A DNA stretch of 20,000 nt. Origin: Pseudomonadota bacterium. GTDB taxonomy: Bacteria > Desulfobacterota > Desulfobacteria > Desulfobacterales > JBDRRP01. A program made the position numbers and the translations under genes. The notes beneath the pieces are model-generated. The model did no database searches and was not told the origin of the DNA. It saw only the letters and a program-made list of their open reading frames with translations. Below, in pieces: positions 3,792-19,726 of this stretch. Positions within the stretch are counted from its first letter, which is position 1. The number at the start of each line of letters is the position of its first letter. The stretch spans positions 58,752 to 78,751 of the forward strand of contig JBDRRP010000090.1 in the NCBI GenBank assembly GCA_043825735.1, read 5' to 3'.

Positions 3792-3900
3792 CACTACACA
3801 GAGCTCTACGCCTATCATTCTGCAATTGGCGGCGGATCAGGAAGATAGAGGAACATGGCAAATAGTCCTCCCATAGAGGAAACTGAATTAGGCTGACGTC

Positions 3901-3948
3901 GGCCTAACCATCGTTGAATGAGATGTCTATTAAATATGAATGTTATGT
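3901..3948 (+). repeat. Degenerate short attC-like site / left border of cassette 1
   Basis: GGCCTAAC (R''-like) ... GTTATGT (R', G at 3942) with an imperfect internal hairpin CAT..TTGAAT..AGA / TCT.ATTAAA.ATG. Confidence 0.45.
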
Positions 3949-3965
3949 GTTTTGGAAAAGTAATA

Positions 3966-3981
3966 GGGGTCAGACCACGAA
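3966..3981 (+). repeat. Direct repeat copy 1, GGGGTCAGACCACGAA
   Basis: 14/16 identical to the copy at 4492-4507; both preceded by TAATA(A); ends 18 bp before the ORF start. Confidence 0.8.
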
Positions 3982-3999
3982 TATCGTTGAGGGTTTATA

Positions 4000-4488
4000 A
4001 TGAGCGAAAAATACAGATTTAAACCAGCTTCACAACAAGAGCTATCGCTATATTGTTTTGTTGGCGAGTCTGTATGTGCAGTGCAGCATGTGGAAGATGC
4101 CCTTAGTCATTCGATTATATTAAAAAGGACAAAACCACGGTTAAGGTCAGAAGCTGACCAACTTTTAGAGGAATACCGTTCATATACTCTTGGTAAAGCT
4201 ATCAAGATTGCCGAACAAGAAAGTTTATATCCTGAGTCACTACAGCAAGAACTTATAGAGTTTTTGTCAGAAAGAAATTGGCTTATTCATAAAAGTATTG
4301 CACAAAGCCGAGATGAATGGGATTTGAATATCTCCAGAGAAAAATTGATTTATAGAATAAAGGCTATCACAACACAAGCACAGAAGCTTTTACAGTTGAT
4401 CGAAGAGGATTTGATCGAGTTTTCAGAAGCTAATGGTGTTGATATGTCTCGGGTGAGAGCTGAAATAAATAAGCATTATTTTGAATAA
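4000..4488 (+). CDS. Hypothetical cassette protein, HEPN-like (RxxxxH) putative RNase
   Basis: 162 aa, helical character, with ..E.AL, TLG and ERNWLIH (R-N-x3-H) motifs typical of HEPN superfamily; GAGGG RBS. Confidence 0.65.
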   Translation: MSEKYRFKPASQQELSLYCFVGESVCAVQHVEDALSHSIILKRTKPRLRSEADQLLEEYRSYTLGKAIKIAEQESLYPESLQQELIEFLSERNWLIHKSIAQSRDEWDLNISREKLIYRIKAITTQAQKLLQLIEEDLIEFSEANGVDMSRVRAEINKHYFE

Positions 4489-4491
4489 TAA

Positions 4492-4507
4492 GGGGACAGG
4501 CCACGAA
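4492..4507 (+). repeat. Direct repeat copy 2, GGGGACAGGCCACGAA
   Basis: Begins 3 bp after the stop codon of ORF 4000-4488; matches 3966-3981. Confidence 0.8.
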
Positions 4508-4569
4508 CTATAAGTATCCGCTTAGGCCGTTATCAGATATAGAGAAACTAAAGTTAAAAACAATAAAAC

Positions 4570-4641
4570 ACATAACAAGGCGCTCGTTCGGACTCAAACT
4601 TCACTGCGTTTCGTTTGCGCCGCACAGGTTAAGCGTTAACT
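4570..4641 (+). repeat. attC site 1
   Basis: ACATAAC-AAGGCGCTCGTTCGGACTCAAAC...GTTTGCGCCGCACAGGTTAAGC-GTTAACT: R''/R' boxes, internal CGG..CAAAC / GTTTG..CCG pairing, about 70 bp. Confidence 0.9.
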
Positions 4642-5425
4642 CTTTGAAGGTTATTATGGGCAAGAGTTCAAATCAAGAAATTGAAAAATATTTCTTTGAA
4701 ATGTTTCGTAAGGATTATCCGTTGCCATCTGGTAATGTTGTCTACGGAGATAGTCCTGATATCGTTATGGATGGTGAAAGAAAAATCGGGATCGAAATTA
4801 CCAACTTTTACCACAAGCCTGGCTCCGCCCCAGAAAGCGAGCAGATTCAAAATAGCTGGAGAGGTAAGGTCATTTCAGAGGCACAAAATTTTTATGAAAA
4901 ACAAAATGGTAAAAAGTTTGAAATTTCCTTTGGATTTGATAAATCAAATCCTATCCAAAATCAAAAAGATCTAATCAAACAAATATTTGATTTAGCAACG
5001 CAAATTCAAAATTGTGAAACTGGGCAAATTAGAACAGATTATTTTAAGCAGATTCCGGAGCTTTCATTCGTTTATTTGAACAATAAAGAGTACAGAGACA
5101 ATAAGTGGAGAATCGTTCAAGTTTACGATGTTCCAATTCTAAAAATGAAGCGATTATTAAAAATTGTCAGAGATAAAGAACATCGCTCTAAAAAATATGA
5201 GAAATGTGATGCGTATTGGTTACTTGTTGTTGTCGATTTTATGAATCGTGCACAGGACCAGGAAATTCAAGTCGATAATTTCGAAAAAGTTGAGACGGAC
5301 GTATTTGAACGAGTGATAGTTTACAAGACATTGTTCGGTCATGTATTGGAGGCAAAGTAGAGGGAGTTAACCATGCCTTTCACTCGGACGGGAACTCCGC
5401 TCCGTTCCCTCCGGCGAAGGCTACG
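4636..5425 (+). mobile_element. Integron gene cassette 2
   Basis: Starts GTTAACTC (4635-4642); R'' GAGTTAAC (5364-5371) is its exact reverse complement, 3 bp after the ORF stop. Confidence 0.85.
4656..5360 (+). CDS. Hypothetical cassette protein, PD-(D/E)xK-like (restriction endonuclease fold) nuclease
   Basis: N-terminal E...GDSPDIV.....IGIEIT motif and C-terminal KKY..CDAYWLLVV...FERVIV; start set to ATG 4656 after GAAGG RBS. Confidence 0.6.
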   Translation: MGKSSNQEIEKYFFEMFRKDYPLPSGNVVYGDSPDIVMDGERKIGIEITNFYHKPGSAPESEQIQNSWRGKVISEAQNFYEKQNGKKFEISFGFDKSNPIQNQKDLIKQIFDLATQIQNCETGQIRTDYFKQIPELSFVYLNNKEYRDNKWRIVQVYDVPILKMKRLLKIVRDKEHRSKKYEKCDAYWLLVVVDFMNRAQDQEIQVDNFEKVETDVFERVIVYKTLFGHVLEAK

Positions 5426-5431
5426 CTATAA
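5364..5431 (+). repeat. attC site 2 (core mutated GTT>GCT)
   Basis: GAGTTAAC-CATGCCTTTCACTCGGACGGGAAC...GTTCCCTCCGGCGAAGGC-TAC-GCTATAA: strong GCCTT/AAGGC, CGG/CCG, GGGAAC/GTTCCC stems; expected GTT at 5425-5427 reads GCT. Confidence 0.8.
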
Positions 5432-6401
5432 ACCGCGCATTCCGCCTATCATAAGGGCGTGCCACTCGAAGCGATTCCATTGCGGAATCTTTGAATCATT
5501 CTATCCGTTCCAGAATTGGATGGAAATGCTATTTTCCGATTAGGCTTCCTACGTCCCTGAGGACGGTGTCTCGCGGGCATCAATGGCCCGCTGCCCACAT
5601 TTACAACTGTTGAGGCCAGTTGCTATCCACCGCAGGAGGAAAGGCTCTTCAGTTCGCCAATTATACTGTTAGGCTGAGAGGCGGCTTTGCGCTGACTCAA
5701 TGGCTCTGGCAGTGGATGTAGGGGCTAAGAAGGGGCTTGTAAGGATGAGGGAGGAAATGGTTGGCCCTCATCTTGATTTCGATCTCAGAGGATGGCAGAC
5801 TTAGGAACATCGAATCCATTCCTCTCACATTGCACTTAATTCAGGGTAGCATGCACGAGAAACTGTGCATCATTAAATTCACCATTGCGGGTTGAATGAG
5901 TATTGAACCGCCTGATTACACCCATCGAAACCTAATAAATGGGGAAACTAATACCCATAGATTTTATAAGTTAATTAAAGTCTTGACTTCAGGGCAGCTC
6001 ATCAATTATTATTTTGCTATCACTAAAGTCTGCAGCCGAATCCATAGATTGCCCAGAACTTGGAACTGCGGTCTATTCCCCATCCATTTGGTCCTCAACT
6101 ACTCATGCAGACTATTTTGAAATCCATAACAGAATATACCTTAGCTGGTTTGACTGTCTTTCGGAACAGCTGGGTCAATCCATTGTCATTATCAATCCCT
6201 GAATAAGCGATTCAAAAATATATTCCACAATGGTAATTGAACTATCGGAAAATCAAATCCGAATTTCTTATCTATTGCGGATCTGAAAAGGCATTAAAGC
6301 ATGCCGTTGGTCTCTTCATTTTTTTGATTCTATCTGAAATATATTATAATTAAAATCACACATGAACGTATAAAATTAATAATTAGAATGAGGATTTAAT
6401 A

Positions 6402-6720
6402 ATGAAAAAACTATTTGCCTTTTTTTGGTTTTTTTAATTCGATTGCTTTTTCACAAATAGGATTATAGAACTGTTCGGGCAGTTTATCAACGGAGATATT
6501 AATAATGCACCAACAATGTATTATAGCGCTCCGGATAAACCTTTTAAAGATAATAGACATCTTTGCTACCGTGATGAAAAAAAGCTTTTTTGCAATGGAA
6601 TATTGGCCCGATGAGTTTTCACCAAGATGGGTAGCATATAAAATAACACCTGAGAACTATGGACAAAATGGCTGTAATACTTTTACAAGGCAAAAAGCAA
6701 AATTGAGTACTTCTTTAAAA
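6402..6720 (+). pseudogene. Frameshifted, truncated secreted DNA/RNA non-specific endonuclease (NucA/EndoG-like N-terminus)
   Basis: GAGG RBS + MKKLFAFF signal-like start broken in T7 runs; ...DNRHLCYRDEK then a shift at the A7 run (6577-6583) into SFFAMEYWPDEFSPRWVAYKITPEN, matching the LC...Y.....P.WVAY.L motif; no DRGH catalytic motif. Confidence 0.55.
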
Positions 6721-8066: not shown

Positions 8067-8146
8067 ACTGGTTTTAATATAAGATTAATGTTTCTCGAAT
8101 AGAATGGCGGTCTATTCGACATCCATAATAATTAGCTAAAACACAT

Positions 8147-8253
8147 ATAGAATAACATCAGTTTGGCCTAGACGTCAGAAAAATTTCTGTTTATCGCAAA
8201 GGCCGCGGTAGCCCGACCTATGCTATATACGCTATTCAGGTGGGTTGTTAACT
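8147..8253 (+). repeat. Degenerate attC-like site 4 / right border of the island
   Basis: ATAGAATAAC (R''-like, near-complement of GTTATGCCTAT at 6784) ... GTTAACT (8247); internal GGCCT/AGGCC, CAGAAA/TTTCTG and ACCT/AGGT stems, but not one clean hairpin. Confidence 0.3.
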
Positions 8254-8318
8254 CTTCGCTTTACGCCTATAAAAAGTCAGTATTCCGCTGACCTGAAAGA
8301 CCAAGGAATGCCATACAG

Positions 8319-13516: not shown

Positions 13517-15097
13517 ATGATGAAGGGGACTTCGCGGTTACGAATCAGGACATTGTTGCTGGTGGCGGTCGCCGGGGTGCTGCTGTATGCCGGAGCGCAG
13601 GGAATCGCGGCCATTTCGGACAACGCCGCGCCGCCAAGACCGGACACGATTCGCATCGAATCGATGGCGGTATTTGGTAAGCTCGAGCGGCCCGCCGTTG
13701 TGTTCTTTCACGACAAGCACTCCGAAGCTGCCAAGAAAATGGGCAAAGACTGCGCCGCCTGCCACATGACGGCGGACGAAAAGGGAGCCAAACTCTCTCT
13801 CAAGTACATGCGTCTGGAGGACACCGGCCGCGATGCGGTCATGAACGCCTACCACGACAACTGTATCGCCTGTCACAAGGAGGCCTCGGCCAAAAAGCTG
13901 GAGGCCGGGCCCGTGGCGTGCAATGACTGCCACGATGACAAGCGCGCGGGTACCTCGTCCCGCAGGCCGGTGGGGCTGGATCTTTCCCTGCACTATCGCC
14001 ACGACAAGGCCATGGCCAATAAATGCGAAACCTGCCATCACGCCTACAACGAAACAACCGAGAAGCTTTACTACGACAAGGGCAAGGAAGGCTCGTGCCG
14101 GTACTGCCACGGCGAGACAAGCGTCAAAAAACGCATCTCCTTCCGGCTTGCCGCCCATACCGATTGCATCAGCTGCCACCGGCAGAAAGCGGCCGAGAAA
14201 AAAGTGGCCGGGCCGGTGGAATGCAAGGGCTGCCACGGCGCCGAGGAACAGGCCCTGTGGGAGAAAGTGAAAGACCCTGCGCCGCCCAAGCGCGGGCAGC
14301 CCGAGGCCACCATTGTGATGGCGGGCAAGGGCGCCCGCATGGGGCTGGTTCCCTTCAACCACAGCGCCCATCAGCGCGCCAGCGACACCTGCCGGGTATG
14401 TCATCACAAGGAAATCGTTGCCTGCAACGAGTGCCACAGTGTGGACGGCAAAAAGGAAGGCCAGTTCATCACGTTGGAAAAGGCCATGCATGAGGTGACC
14501 CAGGACGCCAGTTGTATGGGGTGCCATGATCGGAAAAAAACGCAGAGCCTCCAGTGTGTCGGCTGCCACGGCGCGATGGAAAAGCGCAAGATCAGTCAGG
14601 ATGCCTGCTTGAGCTGCCACGACATCCCGCCGGGCATCGTCGCCGAGGACGCCGGAAAGAATGAACGCACCGCCATTGCCGTGATCGCATTGATGACACG
14701 GCCCCCTGCGGCGGACGCTATTGCCGCGAAAGACATCCCCGAAGTGGTGGAAATAGCCACCCTTGCGGATAAATATGAACCGGCCAAGATGCCGCACCGG
14801 CGCGTCGTCGACAAGATGAGGGCCGGAATCGGCGACAACCGGCTCGCCGCTTATTTCCATCAAACGCCCGGGACCATTTGCCAGGGCTGCCATCACAACA
14901 GCCCGGCTGCCGTGAAACCGCCCAAATGCGCCAGCTGCCACAGCCGCGGCAAAGGCCTTGAGGTGAGCGATATCGAAAAGCCCGGGCTCATGGGGGCCTA
15001 CCACCAGCAGTGCATGGGCTGCCACGATGCCATGGGTATAGAAAAGCCGTCAAAGAACGACTGCATCGGTTGCCATCTCGAGCGCAAGCAGTGGTAA
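13517..15097 (+). CDS. hmcA: High-molecular-weight 16-heme cytochrome c
   Basis: Sec signal and exactly 16 CxxCH motifs in cytochrome c3-like domains; first structural gene of an hmc-type operon. Confidence 0.95.
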   Translation: MMKGTSRLRIRTLLLVAVAGVLLYAGAQGIAAISDNAAPPRPDTIRIESMAVFGKLERPAVVFFHDKHSEAAKKMGKDCAACHMTADEKGAKLSLKYMRLEDTGRDAVMNAYHDNCIACHKEASAKKLEAGPVACNDCHDDKRAGTSSRRPVGLDLSLHYRHDKAMANKCETCHHAYNETTEKLYYDKGKEGSCRYCHGETSVKKRISFRLAAHTDCISCHRQKAAEKKVAGPVECKGCHGAEEQALWEKVKDPAPPKRGQPEATIVMAGKGARMGLVPFNHSAHQRASDTCRVCHHKEIVACNECHSVDGKKEGQFITLEKAMHEVTQDASCMGCHDRKKTQSLQCVGCHGAMEKRKISQDACLSCHDIPPGIVAEDAGKNERTAIAVIALMTRPPAADAIAAKDIPEVVEIATLADKYEPAKMPHRRVVDKMRAGIGDNRLAAYFHQTPGTICQGCHHNSPAAVKPPKCASCHSRGKGLEVSDIEKPGLMGAYHQQCMGCHDAMGIEKPSKNDCIGCHLERKQW

Positions 15098-15126
15098 CCG
15101 TGATAACCATTGAAGAGGTGCACTAA

Positions 15127-16248
15127 ATGGCCATTTCGAGAAGAACCTTTTTAGGATGGATGGGGGCTGCCAGTGTTGCCACAACCGTTGGCAACCGGGC
15201 CCAGGCGGCTGGAAATCATCACTTCGAGGGATACCCCGACAGTTACGGGGTGCTCCATGACGACACGCTGTGCATCGGCTGCCGGACTTGCGAGGCGGCC
15301 TGCAACAAGGTCAACGAACTGCCGGTTCCGCACACGCCGTTCACTGATCTCAAGGTGCTGGAGGCGCGCCGCCGCACCGATGACAAGGCCTATACCGTCG
15401 TCAACAAGTATGCACCGGATGGCGCGCAAGGGCGTCCGGTTTTTCGCAAGAACCAGTGCAACCACTGCCTTGAGCCGGCCTGCGCTTCGGCATGTTTCGT
15501 GGAGGCATTCACAAAAACGCCCACCGGCGCGGTGGTTTACGATGCCTCGGTGTGTGTGGGGTGCCGCTACTGCATGATTGCCTGCCCCTTTGAGATTCCC
15601 GCTTACGAATACGACAATGCCTTCACCCCGGTGATTCGAAAGTGCACCATGTGCCATCCACGGGTCGTCGACGGCAAACTGCCCGGTTGCGTGGAATCGT
15701 GCCCGACACAAGCCCTGACTTTCGGCCGGCGCGAAGACCTTCTGAAGGTGGCCAGGGAGCGCATCCGCAAGTTTCCCGAACGCTACATCGACCACATCTA
15801 CGGTGAGAAGGAGATGGGCGGCACCAGTTGGCTGTACATCTCCGGAGCCTCTTTCAGCGACGTGGGGCTGCGCGAAGACCTGGGCGTCACACCGGCGCCC
15901 TCACTCACCAAGGGCGCCCTGGGCGCGGTTCCCATGGTGGTGGGCCTGTGGCCGGTGCTGCTGACCGGGATCTATGCCATGACCAAGCGCAAGGAGAAGG
16001 TCGCTGCCGCGCAAGCGCAGGACGCGGTTGCCGCGGCGATCGCCACCGCTAACGATGCGGCCGCCAAGAAGCTGGCCGAGGCGTTGACCAAGGCTGAAAA
16101 AGATAAACAAGCGGCCATCGACCGGGAGGTCAAAAAGGCGCTGGAGGAAGCCGCGAAGGCGCGGGAAGCGGCCGAGAAAGCCCGCGAAGAAGCCACCGAG
16201 CCGGCAGGAGCCGATGACGCTGCGGCGCAAGATGAGGAGGACGCCTGA
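15127..16248 (+). CDS. hmcB: Hmc complex periplasmic 4Fe-4S protein
   Basis: SRRTFL Tat signal; [47 protein letters not shown]-terminal TM helix and Ala/Lys/Glu tail. Confidence 0.93.
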
Positions 16249-17426
16249 TGTCTGAGATTACTGCCACCGAAAACCGAAATTACCTGACACCGTTCAATAT
16301 TATCGCGGGCCTCATTGTCGCCATCGGTCTTGCGGTCACCGCGCTGAGATTCCTCAAGGGGCTGGGAGCCGTCACCAACCTGTCGAACTACCAGCCCTGG
16401 GGCATATGGATCGGCTTCGACCTGCTGTGCGGTGTCGCCTTGGCCGCCGGCGGTTACGTCACCTCGGCCGCCTGCTACATCTTCGGCATGCGCCATTATC
16501 ACTCTGCCGTTCGACCCGCCATTCTGACAGGTTTTCTGGGCTACTCGCTGGTCTTTCTAGCCCTGCTTTACGATGTGGGCCGCCCGGTGCGACTGGCCCT
16601 GGCTTATCCCTTTTTGGTGCAGCAGGGGACGTCGTCGCTGCTATTCGAAGTGGGCCTGTGCGTGGCGATCTACCTGACGGTGCTCTTTCTCGAGTTCAGT
16701 CCGGCGGCCCTGGAATGGCTGGGGCTTCGGCTGCTTCGAAATCTGTTGGTGCGGATCACCATGGTGCTGACGATATTCGGCGTGGTGCTGAGCACCCTGC
16801 ACCAGTCGTCTCTCGGGGCCCTGTTTCTCATCGCCCCGAGCAAACTGCACCCGCTGTGGTACTCGTCGAATATTCCCATCTACTTTTTCGTTTCCAGCAT
16901 CATCGCCGGCCTGTCCATGGTGCTCTTTGAAGGCAGTCTCGCCCACAAGTACTTCCACCACAAAATGGACGAAACCCATTTGAAGGAAAACGACGAACTG
17001 GTGCTCGGATTCGGCAAAGCGGCCGCGCTGGTGCTGGCCGGCTATTTTACGATCAAGGTGATCGGCATCGCCGCCGACGACAACTGGCACTACCTGGCCA
17101 CCGGCTGGGGCGCCTGGTATCTGGTGGAACTGCTGGGATTCGTTGCCCTGCCCTGTTTTCTCTTTGCCGTCGGGGTCCGCGACCGCAATCGGAAACTGAT
17201 TCAAAGAACCGCGGCGCTGAGCGTGCTGGGCGTGGTCCTCAACCGGCTCAATATATCGGTGATCGCGTTCAACTATCACCTGCCGGCAGCGGACCGATAC
17301 GTGCCGCATCTTTTTGAGATCTGCATTTCGGTGTTCATCGTCACCGTCGGCGTGTTGGCCTATCGGTTCATTGTTACCCACATGCCGATTCTTTACGAGC
17401 ACCCCGATTACAAAGACGAGCATTAA
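16248..17426 (+). CDS. hmcC: Hmc complex integral membrane subunit (NrfD/HybB family)
   Basis: PWGIWIGFDLLCGVALAAGGY, DVGRP, LSTLHQSSLG, KLHPLWY; polytopic; TGATG overlap with hmcB. Confidence 0.93.
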   Translation: MSEITATENRNYLTPFNIIAGLIVAIGLAVTALRFLKGLGAVTNLSNYQPWGIWIGFDLLCGVALAAGGYVTSAACYIFGMRHYHSAVRPAILTGFLGYSLVFLALLYDVGRPVRLALAYPFLVQQGTSSLLFEVGLCVAIYLTVLFLEFSPAALEWLGLRLLRNLLVRITMVLTIFGVVLSTLHQSSLGALFLIAPSKLHPLWYSSNIPIYFFVSSIIAGLSMVLFEGSLAHKYFHHKMDETHLKENDELVLGFGKAAALVLAGYFTIKVIGIAADDNWHYLATGWGAWYLVELLGFVALPCFLFAVGVRDRNRKLIQRTAALSVLGVVLNRLNISVIAFNYHLPAADRYVPHLFEICISVFIVTVGVLAYRFIVTHMPILYEHPDYKDEH

Positions 17427-17444
17427 ACAGGAGGATCGCCTCTC

Positions 17445-17576
17445 ATGGAACAGAGCTTTTTCACACTCCAGGATTTCATGGTCCACACCAAGGCCGTCAT
17501 CTATGTGCTGATGGGCGTGTCACTGGTCGGGATCGTCGGCTTCTGGTTTTTCCTGACGGGAAAAGAAGGCAAATAA
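17445..17576 (+). CDS. hmcD: Hmc complex small membrane subunit (43 aa, absent from ORF track)
   Basis: AGGAGG RBS; MEQSFFTLQDFMVHTKAVIYVLMGVSLVGIVGFWFFLTGKEGK, single TM helix, located between hmcC and hmcE. Confidence 0.88.
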   Translation: MEQSFFTLQDFMVHTKAVIYVLMGVSLVGIVGFWFFLTGKEGK

Positions 17577-17624
17577 CACCGTTCGGCGGCGGACCAACGC
17601 CCCGTCAACGCTAAGGAGTCTACC

Positions 17625-18302
17625 ATGTACGCATTTGTTACCGGTCCTCTGGCATGGCTGAGTTTCTTGATTTTTTTTATCGGCGTCATTGCCAGGGCGG
17701 TCATGTATGTGAAGGGGCTGGACTGGAAACTGGACCGCGTGCCTTATGGGCATTTCAACCGGTTCGGCGTCAGGGGCGCGGTGCGCAGCGTCGTGTCGTG
17801 GCTGATTCCCTTCGGCACCCACGGCTGGCGGCAGAACCCGGGATTCACCCTGCTGGTGTTCGTCTTCCACATCGGCCTGCTGGTGACGCCGGTCTTTCTT
17901 CTGGCGCATAACGTCATCTTGAAGGAACGCTGGGGATTCAGTCTGTGGACCTTTCCCGAAGTCGTGGGCGATGGCCTCACAGTGGCCATGCTGGTGGCCG
18001 CGCTGTTCATCGTGTTGCGGCGAATCGCACTTCCGGAAGTGCGCATCCTCACCACCGCCTATGACTATCTGCTGCTGCTCATCGCCACCGGCCCGTTCAT
18101 CACCGGATTCATCGCCTATCACCACATGGGCGATTATCATTTCTGGATCATAGCGCACATTCTCAGCGGTGAACTCTGGCTCATCGCCGTACCGTTTACC
18201 AAACTGTCCCATTTTATCCTGTTTTTCATGTCCCGCATCCAACTCGGTATGGATTACGGCATCAAGCGCGGCGGCATGAAGGGCACGGATATGGCCTGGT
18301 AG
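17625..18302 (+). CDS. hmcE: Hmc complex NarI-like cytochrome b membrane subunit
   Basis: [50 protein letters not shown]. Confidence 0.92.
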
Positions 18303-18337
18303 ATAAGACGATTAACCTTTATCGATTGGGAAGAAAA

Positions 18338-19726
18338 ATGGCTGAAGGCAAACTGTGCAATAGAACGCCCTGTAATACCAAAGAGCAGCTTCAGGCGCTG
18401 CTAGACGACAAAAGCGGCAAGCAATACTACGCCGAAATGGACCAACTGAACGTTGACCATGAAAAGTTGGCCACCGTTTTCAAGAACACGCTGAAATCCC
18501 GGCTCAAGACCTGGCTGGAGATCTGCGCCCATTGCGGCATGTGTGCGGAGAGCTGTTTTTTCTATCTGGCCAACGACAATGACCCAGAGCAGGTTCCGTC
18601 CTTCAAGATCCAGGACACCCTGGGGCAACTCGTCAAGCGCAAAGGCAAGGTGGACAATGCCTTCATGCAGTACTGCATGGACACGGCCTGGGGCAAATGC
18701 ACCTGCTGCAACCGGTGCGGCCAGTATTGTCCGTTCGGGATCGACATGGGCATCATGTTCGGCTACCTGCGCGGCGTGTGTCATTCTCAGGGGTTCGTGC
18801 CCTGGGAGTTGAAGATCGGCGCCGGCATGCACCGGATTTTCAGGGCCCAGATGGACGTTTCCACCGAGGACTGGGTGGAGACCTGCGAGTGGATGGCCGA
18901 GGAATACGAAGAGGAGTACCCGGGTCTTGAAATCCCCATGGATAAGGAAAATGCAGACATCATCTATACCGTGAACGCCAGAGAGCCCAAGCACTATCCG
19001 GAGGATCTGGCGGAGGCTGCCATATTGTTCCATCTGGCCGGAGAGAACTGGACCGTCCCCTCGGAAGGATGGGAGGAGACGAGCCTGGCCATGTTCGCCG
19101 GCGACTGGGAAGCGTGCAAGATGCAGGTGGAGTCGGTCTACGCAGCCATGCGCCGGCTCAATCCCAAACGCATGGTGGTCACCGAATGCGGCCATGCCTA
19201 CAGGGCCACGGTGATCGAGGGCCCCTACTGGGCGGGTATCGAAACCGGCCAGACGCCGGTACCCAGTTTTCATTACGTGGAGTGGGTGGCCGAGGCGCTG
19301 CGCACCGGAAAGATCAAGATCGACCCTGCCAAACGGATCAAGGAGCCGGTGACATACCAGGATTCTTGTAACTATATCCGCAACGCCGGTTTGAAGGACG
19401 CCGCCCGGGAGATCATGAGCTATATCGCCGAGGATTTCCGGGAAATGAAACCCAACAAGGAACACAATTTCTGCTGCGGCGGCGGTGGCGGCATGAACGG
19501 CCTGGGGCGTTACCGGCAGCAGCGAAACATAGGTCTGAAGGTCAAGCGGGACCAGATCCTTGCCACCGGTGCCAAATTGGTGATTTCCCCCTGTCACAAC
19601 TGCTGGGACGCTATCCGCGATCTTGAGGAGGTTTACAAGGTGGGCATCCGCTGGTCTTTCCTCAAACCGCTGCTCATCAAAATGGCCATCGTTCCAGACC
19701 ATCTGAAGGTGCCCGAAGAAGAATAG
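18338..19726 (+). CDS. hmcF: Hmc complex cytoplasmic Fe-S/CCG protein (HdrD/DsrK-like)
   Basis: [45 protein letters not shown]; start set to ATG 18338. Confidence 0.92.

Follow-up and report, generated by a model that had tools for sequence, protein, structure and literature searches.

How a gene that carries the ends of one mobile element at both of its borders came to lie inside an integron gene cassette is the question raised by the locus described here. The window, that is, the whole analyzed stretch of 20,000 nucleotides, contains a cassette of 693 bp (cassette 1) whose open reading frame (4000..4488; forward strand, like the other cassette features below) is bracketed by two direct repeats, GGGGTCAGACCACGAA at 3966..3981, which ends 18 bp upstream of the ATG, and GGGGACAGGCCACGAA at 4492..4507, which starts 3 bp downstream of the stop codon. 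The two agree at 14 of 16 positions and are spaced 526 bp apart. An initial annotation of the window had drawn attention to this arrangement, tight to the ORF and inside the cassette borders, and recomputing the coordinates and the complementarity of R' and R'' gave the same picture; likewise, the 167 bp that it expected to be left after removal of one repeat-to-repeat unit are what remains of 693 bp minus 526 bp. The pattern GGGGWCAGRCCACG matched the 6.8-Mb host genome twice, both times in cassette 1, and since a reversed control pattern matched four times, this count alone is not above chance. The placement of the repeats at the ORF borders is above chance, with a 14/16 pair at both borders in 9 of 20,000 random draws made with the base composition of the island.

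Cassette 1 is an integron gene cassette

Cassette 1 has the complementary R'/R'' boxes and the attC of integron gene cassettes. It opens with a core site (R', G/TTATGT) and a 12-bp extension at 3942..3953, where GTTATGTGTTTT is exactly complementary to AAAACACATAAC (4565-4576), and it is closed by an attC at 4570..4641 (ACATAAC ... G/TTAACT) that was recognized by a heuristic attC scan and matches sites of a plasmid and of three other genomes at 88–90%. The attC hairpin folded no better than shuffled sequences (z -0.17).

Part of the window is present in 23 public runs, eight of which were examined at the level of contigs (run X1 may be the window's own source). In run X9, one contig aligns to 3942-4638 (27 differences, one gap; ~96% identity) and has other sequence beyond either border of cassette 1, while X6, X2, X3 and X12 hold partial copies with the same borders. 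Contigs of these other (sediment) runs start at 3942, as seen in X6, X9 and X12, and break at 4638, and the right repeat is retained in the copies of X2, X3, X6 and X9. Cassette 1, both repeats included, is thus found with other neighbours and therefore travels as a normal attC cassette, moving as a unit between core sites.

Immediately upstream lies a dispersed non-coding repeat of ~143 bp (3806..3945, forward strand), which is given here as context only and whose 3' end supplies the junction for cassette 1. Copies of it occur on contigs C112, C59, C115, C79 and C11 of the host genome (G000); on C59 (2307-8544), cassettes adjoin the 3' end of the repeat and partial repeat copies follow attC sites. 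The repeat may act as a landing site present in several copies, or be a cassette that has no ORF; as an attC, 3806-3945 was rejected after the heuristic scan. IntI-like genes of the host genome were found only on C139 and C64.

Some further features of the window were noted in passing. A second cassette (4644-5431) carries a 238-aa ORF without a family and ends in an attC-like hairpin with no GTT in its R' (fold z -1.68). Positions 8120-8265, at the far end of the AT-rich island, show weak inverted similarity to 3894-3968 and have no other copy in the genome. An operon for a multihaem cytochrome and iron-sulfur and membrane subunits occupies 13517-19726 and presumably resembles, judging from the translations, the Hmc complex of sulfate reducers. 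A search of the window against Rfam returned no match.

The cargo gene encodes a putative HEPN-type RNase

Among 42 homologues of the 162-aa product of 4000..4488, residues N93, W94 and H97 are invariant and R92 is near-invariant, and the resulting motif, ERNWLIH, is one that we take to fit the HEPN motif R-x4-H (motif definition R-x4-6-H). The structure model is all-helical (pLDDT 85.7) and aligned with HEPN structures at Z 6.6–7.9 (2hsb, 7.9, rmsd 3.0, 100 aligned; 3o10, 7.5; Csm6 6tug, 7.4), non-HEPN bundles scoring as high; leads from the Atlas were MtlR (0.83) and DUF4145 (0.81). Foldseek returned nothing at E<=0.001, a PDB sequence search nothing, and Pfam, NCBIfam and PADLOC hold no family for the protein, while a plasmid search retrieved one distant homologue. 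We regard the cargo as likely to be a HEPN-type defence RNase.

Resemblance of the repeats to TIRtron ends

TIRYT are Y1/HUH transposase genes flanked by inverted repeats with the consensus GGGGWSAS, and, according to the accessible text of the work that described them, TIR families occur singly, as dimers or in groups (Di Nocera et al. 2013, PMC3733652). In the parts of a later classification available to us, TIRYT are mostly equated with TnpA-Y1 subclass 2.1, which is reported in 14.9% of strains and thus common (Quentin et al. 2018, PMC6006769). As judged from their letters, the two 16-mers of cassette 1 match such TIRtron ends: at 3966 and 4492 the window reads GGGGTCAG and GGGGACAG, both of which fit GGGGWSAS. 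The first 14 nt of the left end (3966..3981) fit GGGGWCAGRCCACG, the pattern that flanks Y1 genes in L312, L309, L318, L512 and L514 and, with single changes, in L320. At these inverted-end-flanked loci, which stem from genomes G326, G353, G160, G836 and G715, GGGGACAGACCACG (in some copies with single changes) forms inverted repeats around genes for 230–236-aa proteins that carry Y1_Tnp with the motifs HVH and Y-x3-NP and score 74–78 bits against NF047646, slightly below the cut-off of 80. The suspicion of the initial annotation that the motif was tied to Y1/HUH transposase genes was therefore borne out, as it is a TIRYT terminal repeat that flanks Y1 genes elsewhere. The TIRYT of this end family probably belong to subclass 2.1; what is accessible of the subclass description (PMC6006769) includes an HTH tail, whereas the one protein scanned here, that of L312, gave a Pfam match to Y1_Tnp only.

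The left end is shortened and fused to the gene's own ribosome-binding region, and the right end (4492..4507) lies in direct orientation behind the stop codon. Both terminate in CCACGAA rather than the usual CCACG(G)TTT, a variant found in 4 of 136 family sites. Outside the left end, a 10-nt leader (3956..3965) ends in TAATA; among the 136 sites, leaders of the family read AAATA (50), CAATA (15) or TAATA (12). Folding at the left and right repeats was no better than that of shuffles (z -0.56 and -0.35), and no GTAG- or CGTC-footed hairpin of the REP kind was found there.

Within the phylum, 32 of 401 genomes had a match to the 14-mer. The majority of hits, single ones included, stayed at control level; four genomes hold copy families of 22, 20, 9 and 6 (controls 1, 0, 0 and 3). 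For the 14-mer plus leader, another class had 37 positive genomes among 401 (one of the 37 unpublished), against 3 for the control. We took 104 matches of the 16-mer on viral contigs, all single and without a nearby Y1 gene, as chance. The host genome has eight Y1 matches, none of them on C90 and none with the end type of the window, and although several end families of its own are present, none is of the window's type; the gene therefore likely brought its ends along from elsewhere. Cassette 1 does not contain a complete TIRtron, with TIRYT between inward ends, as its ends are direct around a non-transposase gene.

Ends of the family carry duplications of their outer flank

Of 136 distinct family ends, 39 show a tandem duplication of the outer flank of 6–18 nt, and in 34 of these the first copy is followed by 1–28 letters of the end itself, so that one flank copy with the beginning of the end precedes a second copy with the full end. 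Controls with swapped flanks gave averages of 5.4 and 3.0 and maxima of 13 and 8, and the first set of ends analyzed had the duplication at 23 of 77. Such stutters occur in G052, G185, G353, G160, G326, gamma-class genomes and the host genome, and L420 has a long version at a contig end, where 7 nt of leader together with 120 bp recur 701 bp further on. We infer that the stutter would be the expected trace of a nick, extension and rejoining, the position of the nick being read from the scars only. Among the TIRtrons inspected by eye, a target duplication across the element was found in none.

Homologous loci outside and inside integrons

We collected 166 homologues of the cargo protein and compared 160 loci, some of them duplicates and six ending at a contig end. 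The four closest (L081, L001, L082 and L083) do not lie in a cassette. Three of them, L081 (94% identity), L001 (88%) and L082 (85%), have an end 1–3 nt after the stop codon, which upholds the expectation that homologues outside integrons keep the repeats; in L083 (85%) and the remaining loci, no end was present within 4 nt of the stop. The string 4 nt after the stop of L116 (40% identity) only doubtfully resembles an end and was left out of the count. Two of the three loci are in defence islands: the gene follows Gabija in L081 and, in L082, has a UG6 reverse transcriptase on one side and Lamassu on the other; the heuristic scan found no attC at L081, L001 or L082, and neither a TIRYT gene nor an inverted partner end lies beside the gene copies of these three loci or of the window.

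The homology between the window and L081 ends 10 nt outside the left end, at the outer limit of the leader. At L001 the left end is a different one and faces outward, and at L082 the left end (5880-5910) has decayed, mainly by G to A changes, within an otherwise 88%-identical gene copy. Behind the right repeat, the non-coding stretch 4508..4530 (AGTATCCG..GGCC) resembles the same position in L081, and GTCCGC sites related to it flank the homologue in L083; to judge from these similarities, 4508-4530 is likely the remnant of a further site family. As separate observations, GCGGACA/TGTCCG-type sites (1990-2002 and 6509-6530) bracket Gabija plus the cargo gene of L081 as inverted repeats and are followed there by a DDE transposase gene, and the L001 homologue is framed by ~100-bp imperfect direct repeats of another family (60-160 and 778-900). 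Sites of the GCGGACA/TGTCCG type are possibly a third site family.

Attachment sites resembling attC were flagged heuristically behind 11 of 150 homologues; eight are canonical, with the stop codon inside R'', and three look false. No TIRtron end was found at any of the 11 loci, and none of 126 family ends has an attC-like site within 200 nt inside, a weak negative because three of the 11 flags look false and the scan missed some cassettes seen by eye. A tree of 15 gene copies was poorly resolved, with two changes needed for the label, so that the order 'TIRtron first, cassette second' is a matter of parsimony and not of proof.

A cargo-bearing block has moved between TIRtron ends

Movement of a gene between ends of this kind was caught in one case. 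G715 and G561 have in common a 2,267-bp block (L514:9282-11548 and L562:8269-6016) that sits in different flanks and, at 98.5% identity, exceeds the 95% of the core gene that they share. The block runs from a 10-nt leader and a degenerate end through a dead TIRYT fragment and a cytochrome b561 gene to a direct end, a TIRYT, an inverted end and 5 nt, and its junctions are sharp, 10 and 5 nt outside the outer ends. It carries the sister end type, GGGGTCAGATCCC, and not that of the window, and with this proviso it substantiates the idea that ends of the family can bound a mobile cargo unit. The offset of 10 nt is the one seen at the junction between the window and L081.

The same layout, end>cargo end>TIRYT<end, recurs in L512 with a two-gene module and in L320 with an ankyrin gene. 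In G353, TIRtron copies occur at two sites with 95% identity, and there are also one-ended copies of variable length (200–230 bp). A side observation concerns tandem islands at repeated tRNA-like attachment sites in the same genome (G353:C4:154000-187200, L443-L445), among which a 118-aa gene sits between direct ends; no empty site was found for the units of G353, the 118-aa one having no homologue in 40 relatives and the synteny being broken in G401.

A model for the origin of cassette 1 and its alternatives

On balance we lean, with slightly better than even confidence, towards the reading that the gene was the cargo of a composite TIRtron and that a fragment with the gene and its ends was later captured by an integron, so that it is now an ordinary attC cassette. 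This reading builds on the identity of the motif, on the ends kept by relatives outside integrons, on the complete cassette seen in other arrays and on the one composite of this family, with its cargo, that occupies two different sites. In the mechanism that we propose, the TIRYT would nick the GGGG strand ~5–14 nt outside the end, displacement synthesis would proceed into the end, and the strand would be rejoined elsewhere, often at A-rich AATA-type sites, e.g., stop codons. A new element inserted in this manner behind a gene already inside an older left end would yield end>gene, end>TIRYT<end, and its outer ends could then mobilise the block as one. Were the transposase part lost, end>gene end> would remain, as in the window, where the ends are predicted to be inert passengers, with the TIRYT genes of the host using other end sequences. 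The one composite move caught belongs to the sister end type only, none of the four gene copies has a TIRYT gene or an inverted partner end beside it, and L083 lacks the ends despite its 85% identity; moreover, L081 could be derived from the cassette instead, and the common 10-nt junction offset could have arisen by chance, roughly estimated at ~1 in 7.

A competing and somewhat unlikely reading is that the ends are bystander scars, separate insertions having placed one on either side of an AT-rich gene, like REP graffiti, in a donor genome rich in ends, while the gene itself was moved only by other systems (the integron, other recombinases or island transfer). Singles and inward-facing dimers of ends indeed lie between many genes, including those for housekeeping and biosynthesis; ends are found behind genes such as polA (named by eye), and some genes are truncated by them. 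In an orientation test with crude ORF calls and pairs 300–3,000 bp apart, the 40 non-transposase end pairs were 21 direct, 15 outward and 4 inward, while 10 of 13 transposase pairs were inward; direct pairs around cargo genes are thus not over-represented, and the counts fit independent singles and dimers, or random placement. The gene family also uses many vehicles, among them end-less attC cassettes, the GTCCGC sites of L083 and the ~100-bp direct repeats of L001, a locus whose left end is, besides, the different, outward-facing one. Against independent scarring stand the sharp junctions of the G715/G561 block, by which ends can limit a moving, cargo-bearing unit, and the window/L081 junction with the same offset.

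More far-reaching, and in our view unlikely, is the proposal that TIRYT constitute a widespread single-strand gene-capture system, which would nick 5–14 nt outside the GGGG ends, take up individual genes lying between direct ends, assemble defence and toxin-antitoxin genes into arrays and pass promoterless single-gene units to integrons, cassette 1 being a frozen intermediate of cassette genesis. Less probable still is the integron-like variant along the lines of the initial annotation, in which TIRYT would cut out genes one at a time from between direct ends, as single-stranded circles, and insert the circles at an end already present, which for cassette 1 would be one on an empty cassette of 167 bp. 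What speaks for it are single genes between direct ends (L425 and L456) and dense two-type end arrays in L417:1-12000 (G052:C15), L420 (G185:C220) and L512 (G836:C4), among which lie toxin-antitoxin pairs, AAA/DUF4143 ATPases and PEP-CTERM genes. Gene order at end-rich loci is shuffled between related genomes, the stutter scars indicate that the outer edge of the end is hit repeatedly, and the right end and the sequence downstream of it differ among the four contexts.

Searches for the traces of such a capture, all of them in small samples, found none. A joint skipping 3966-4491, as left by repeat-to-repeat excision, was not seen in the eight runs, a weak negative given that contigs drop rare forms. 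An empty or refilled shell was encountered neither in these runs (a small sample of contigs), nor in 301 genomes of the class, where only the attC matched, nor in 72,556 plasmids, where the right part of the shell served as sole query and gave only attC-level or low-complexity matches; a 40-bp end query had no match among plasmids. The 0/126 and 0/11 counts of the attC comparison bear against the variant as well. In addition, the supposed shell is partly common to the non-integron L081, over 10 nt left of the left end and, loosely, ~22 nt right of the right end, and this part likely arrived with the gene. The notion of delivery into a site on an empty cassette found no support, and other cassette forms of the gene family are free of ends. 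Finally, that the repeats resemble such ends by chance, or are target duplications left by an unrelated element, is highly improbable: the rarity of the CCACGAA terminus and the lack of an identical end family in the host genome would suit it, but not the 14-nt fit with leader to a transposase-linked family, the ends kept in three non-integron relatives or the 9 in 20,000 draws.

Returning to the composite TIRtron that we favour, whether TIRYT mobilise passengers can now be tested directly, as there is a defined substrate, a zone in which the nick is predicted and a single comparative case of cargo that moved. As the cassette contains non-coding DNA homologous to a non-integron defence island, it was likely cut from DNA together with flanks; such an origin bears on how cassettes arise, as one case and not as a general route.

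Comparison with known systems

The bracketed gene of cassette 1 resembles TIRtrons in the fit of its ends to GGGGWSAS and in a 14-mer that is inverted around Y1 genes and elsewhere forms singles, dimers and groups, and it differs from them in having two direct ends around a non-transposase gene inside an integron cassette. Neither cargo, composite movement, outer-flank stutters nor biochemistry is described in the accessible parts of the two TIRtron papers (PMC3733652, PMC6006769), and across the literature searched (mostly open papers, as text without figures or supplements) TIRYT cargo, composites and TIR ends in cassettes were unreported and no biochemistry of TIRYT recognition or cleavage was found. 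The nearest proposal is a TnpA-REP-linked diversification of lanthipeptides, for which the authors later saw no strong evidence of causation (10.1101/2020.03.09.984088). With REPtrons, RAYTs (TnpA-REP) and REP/BIME, the system has in common a Y1 HUH enzyme and dispersed intergenic repeats, whereas the ends in cassette 1 lack a GTAG-footed hairpin. REPtrons are said, in the available text of PMC6006769, not to move as a unit, in contrast to the 95% identical TIRtron copies of G353 and the G715/G561 block; group 1 RAYTs are, in what is accessible of their description, among the most IS-like (Bertels et al. 2017, PMC5581495).

Like other integron gene cassettes, cassette 1 has R'/R'' boxes, an attC and hardly any promoter region and is found intact in other arrays. 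It departs from them in that its stop codon lies 82 nt before R'', as opposed to inside R'' in the eight canonical attC-bearing homologues, and in that its interior holds ends of another mobile element and flanking DNA of a non-integron locus.

In composite transposons and in the one-ended rolling-circle capture of IS91/ISCR, the outer ends of neighbouring elements mobilise a passenger, in the latter by HUH one-strand chemistry. The TIRtron differs from these in its Y1 enzyme, as opposed to DDE or Y2, in its short, GGGG-tagged ends and in the absence, among those inspected by eye, of a target duplication across the element, and it is like them in that a passenger would be mobilised by outer ends and in the one-ended copies of variable length in G353.
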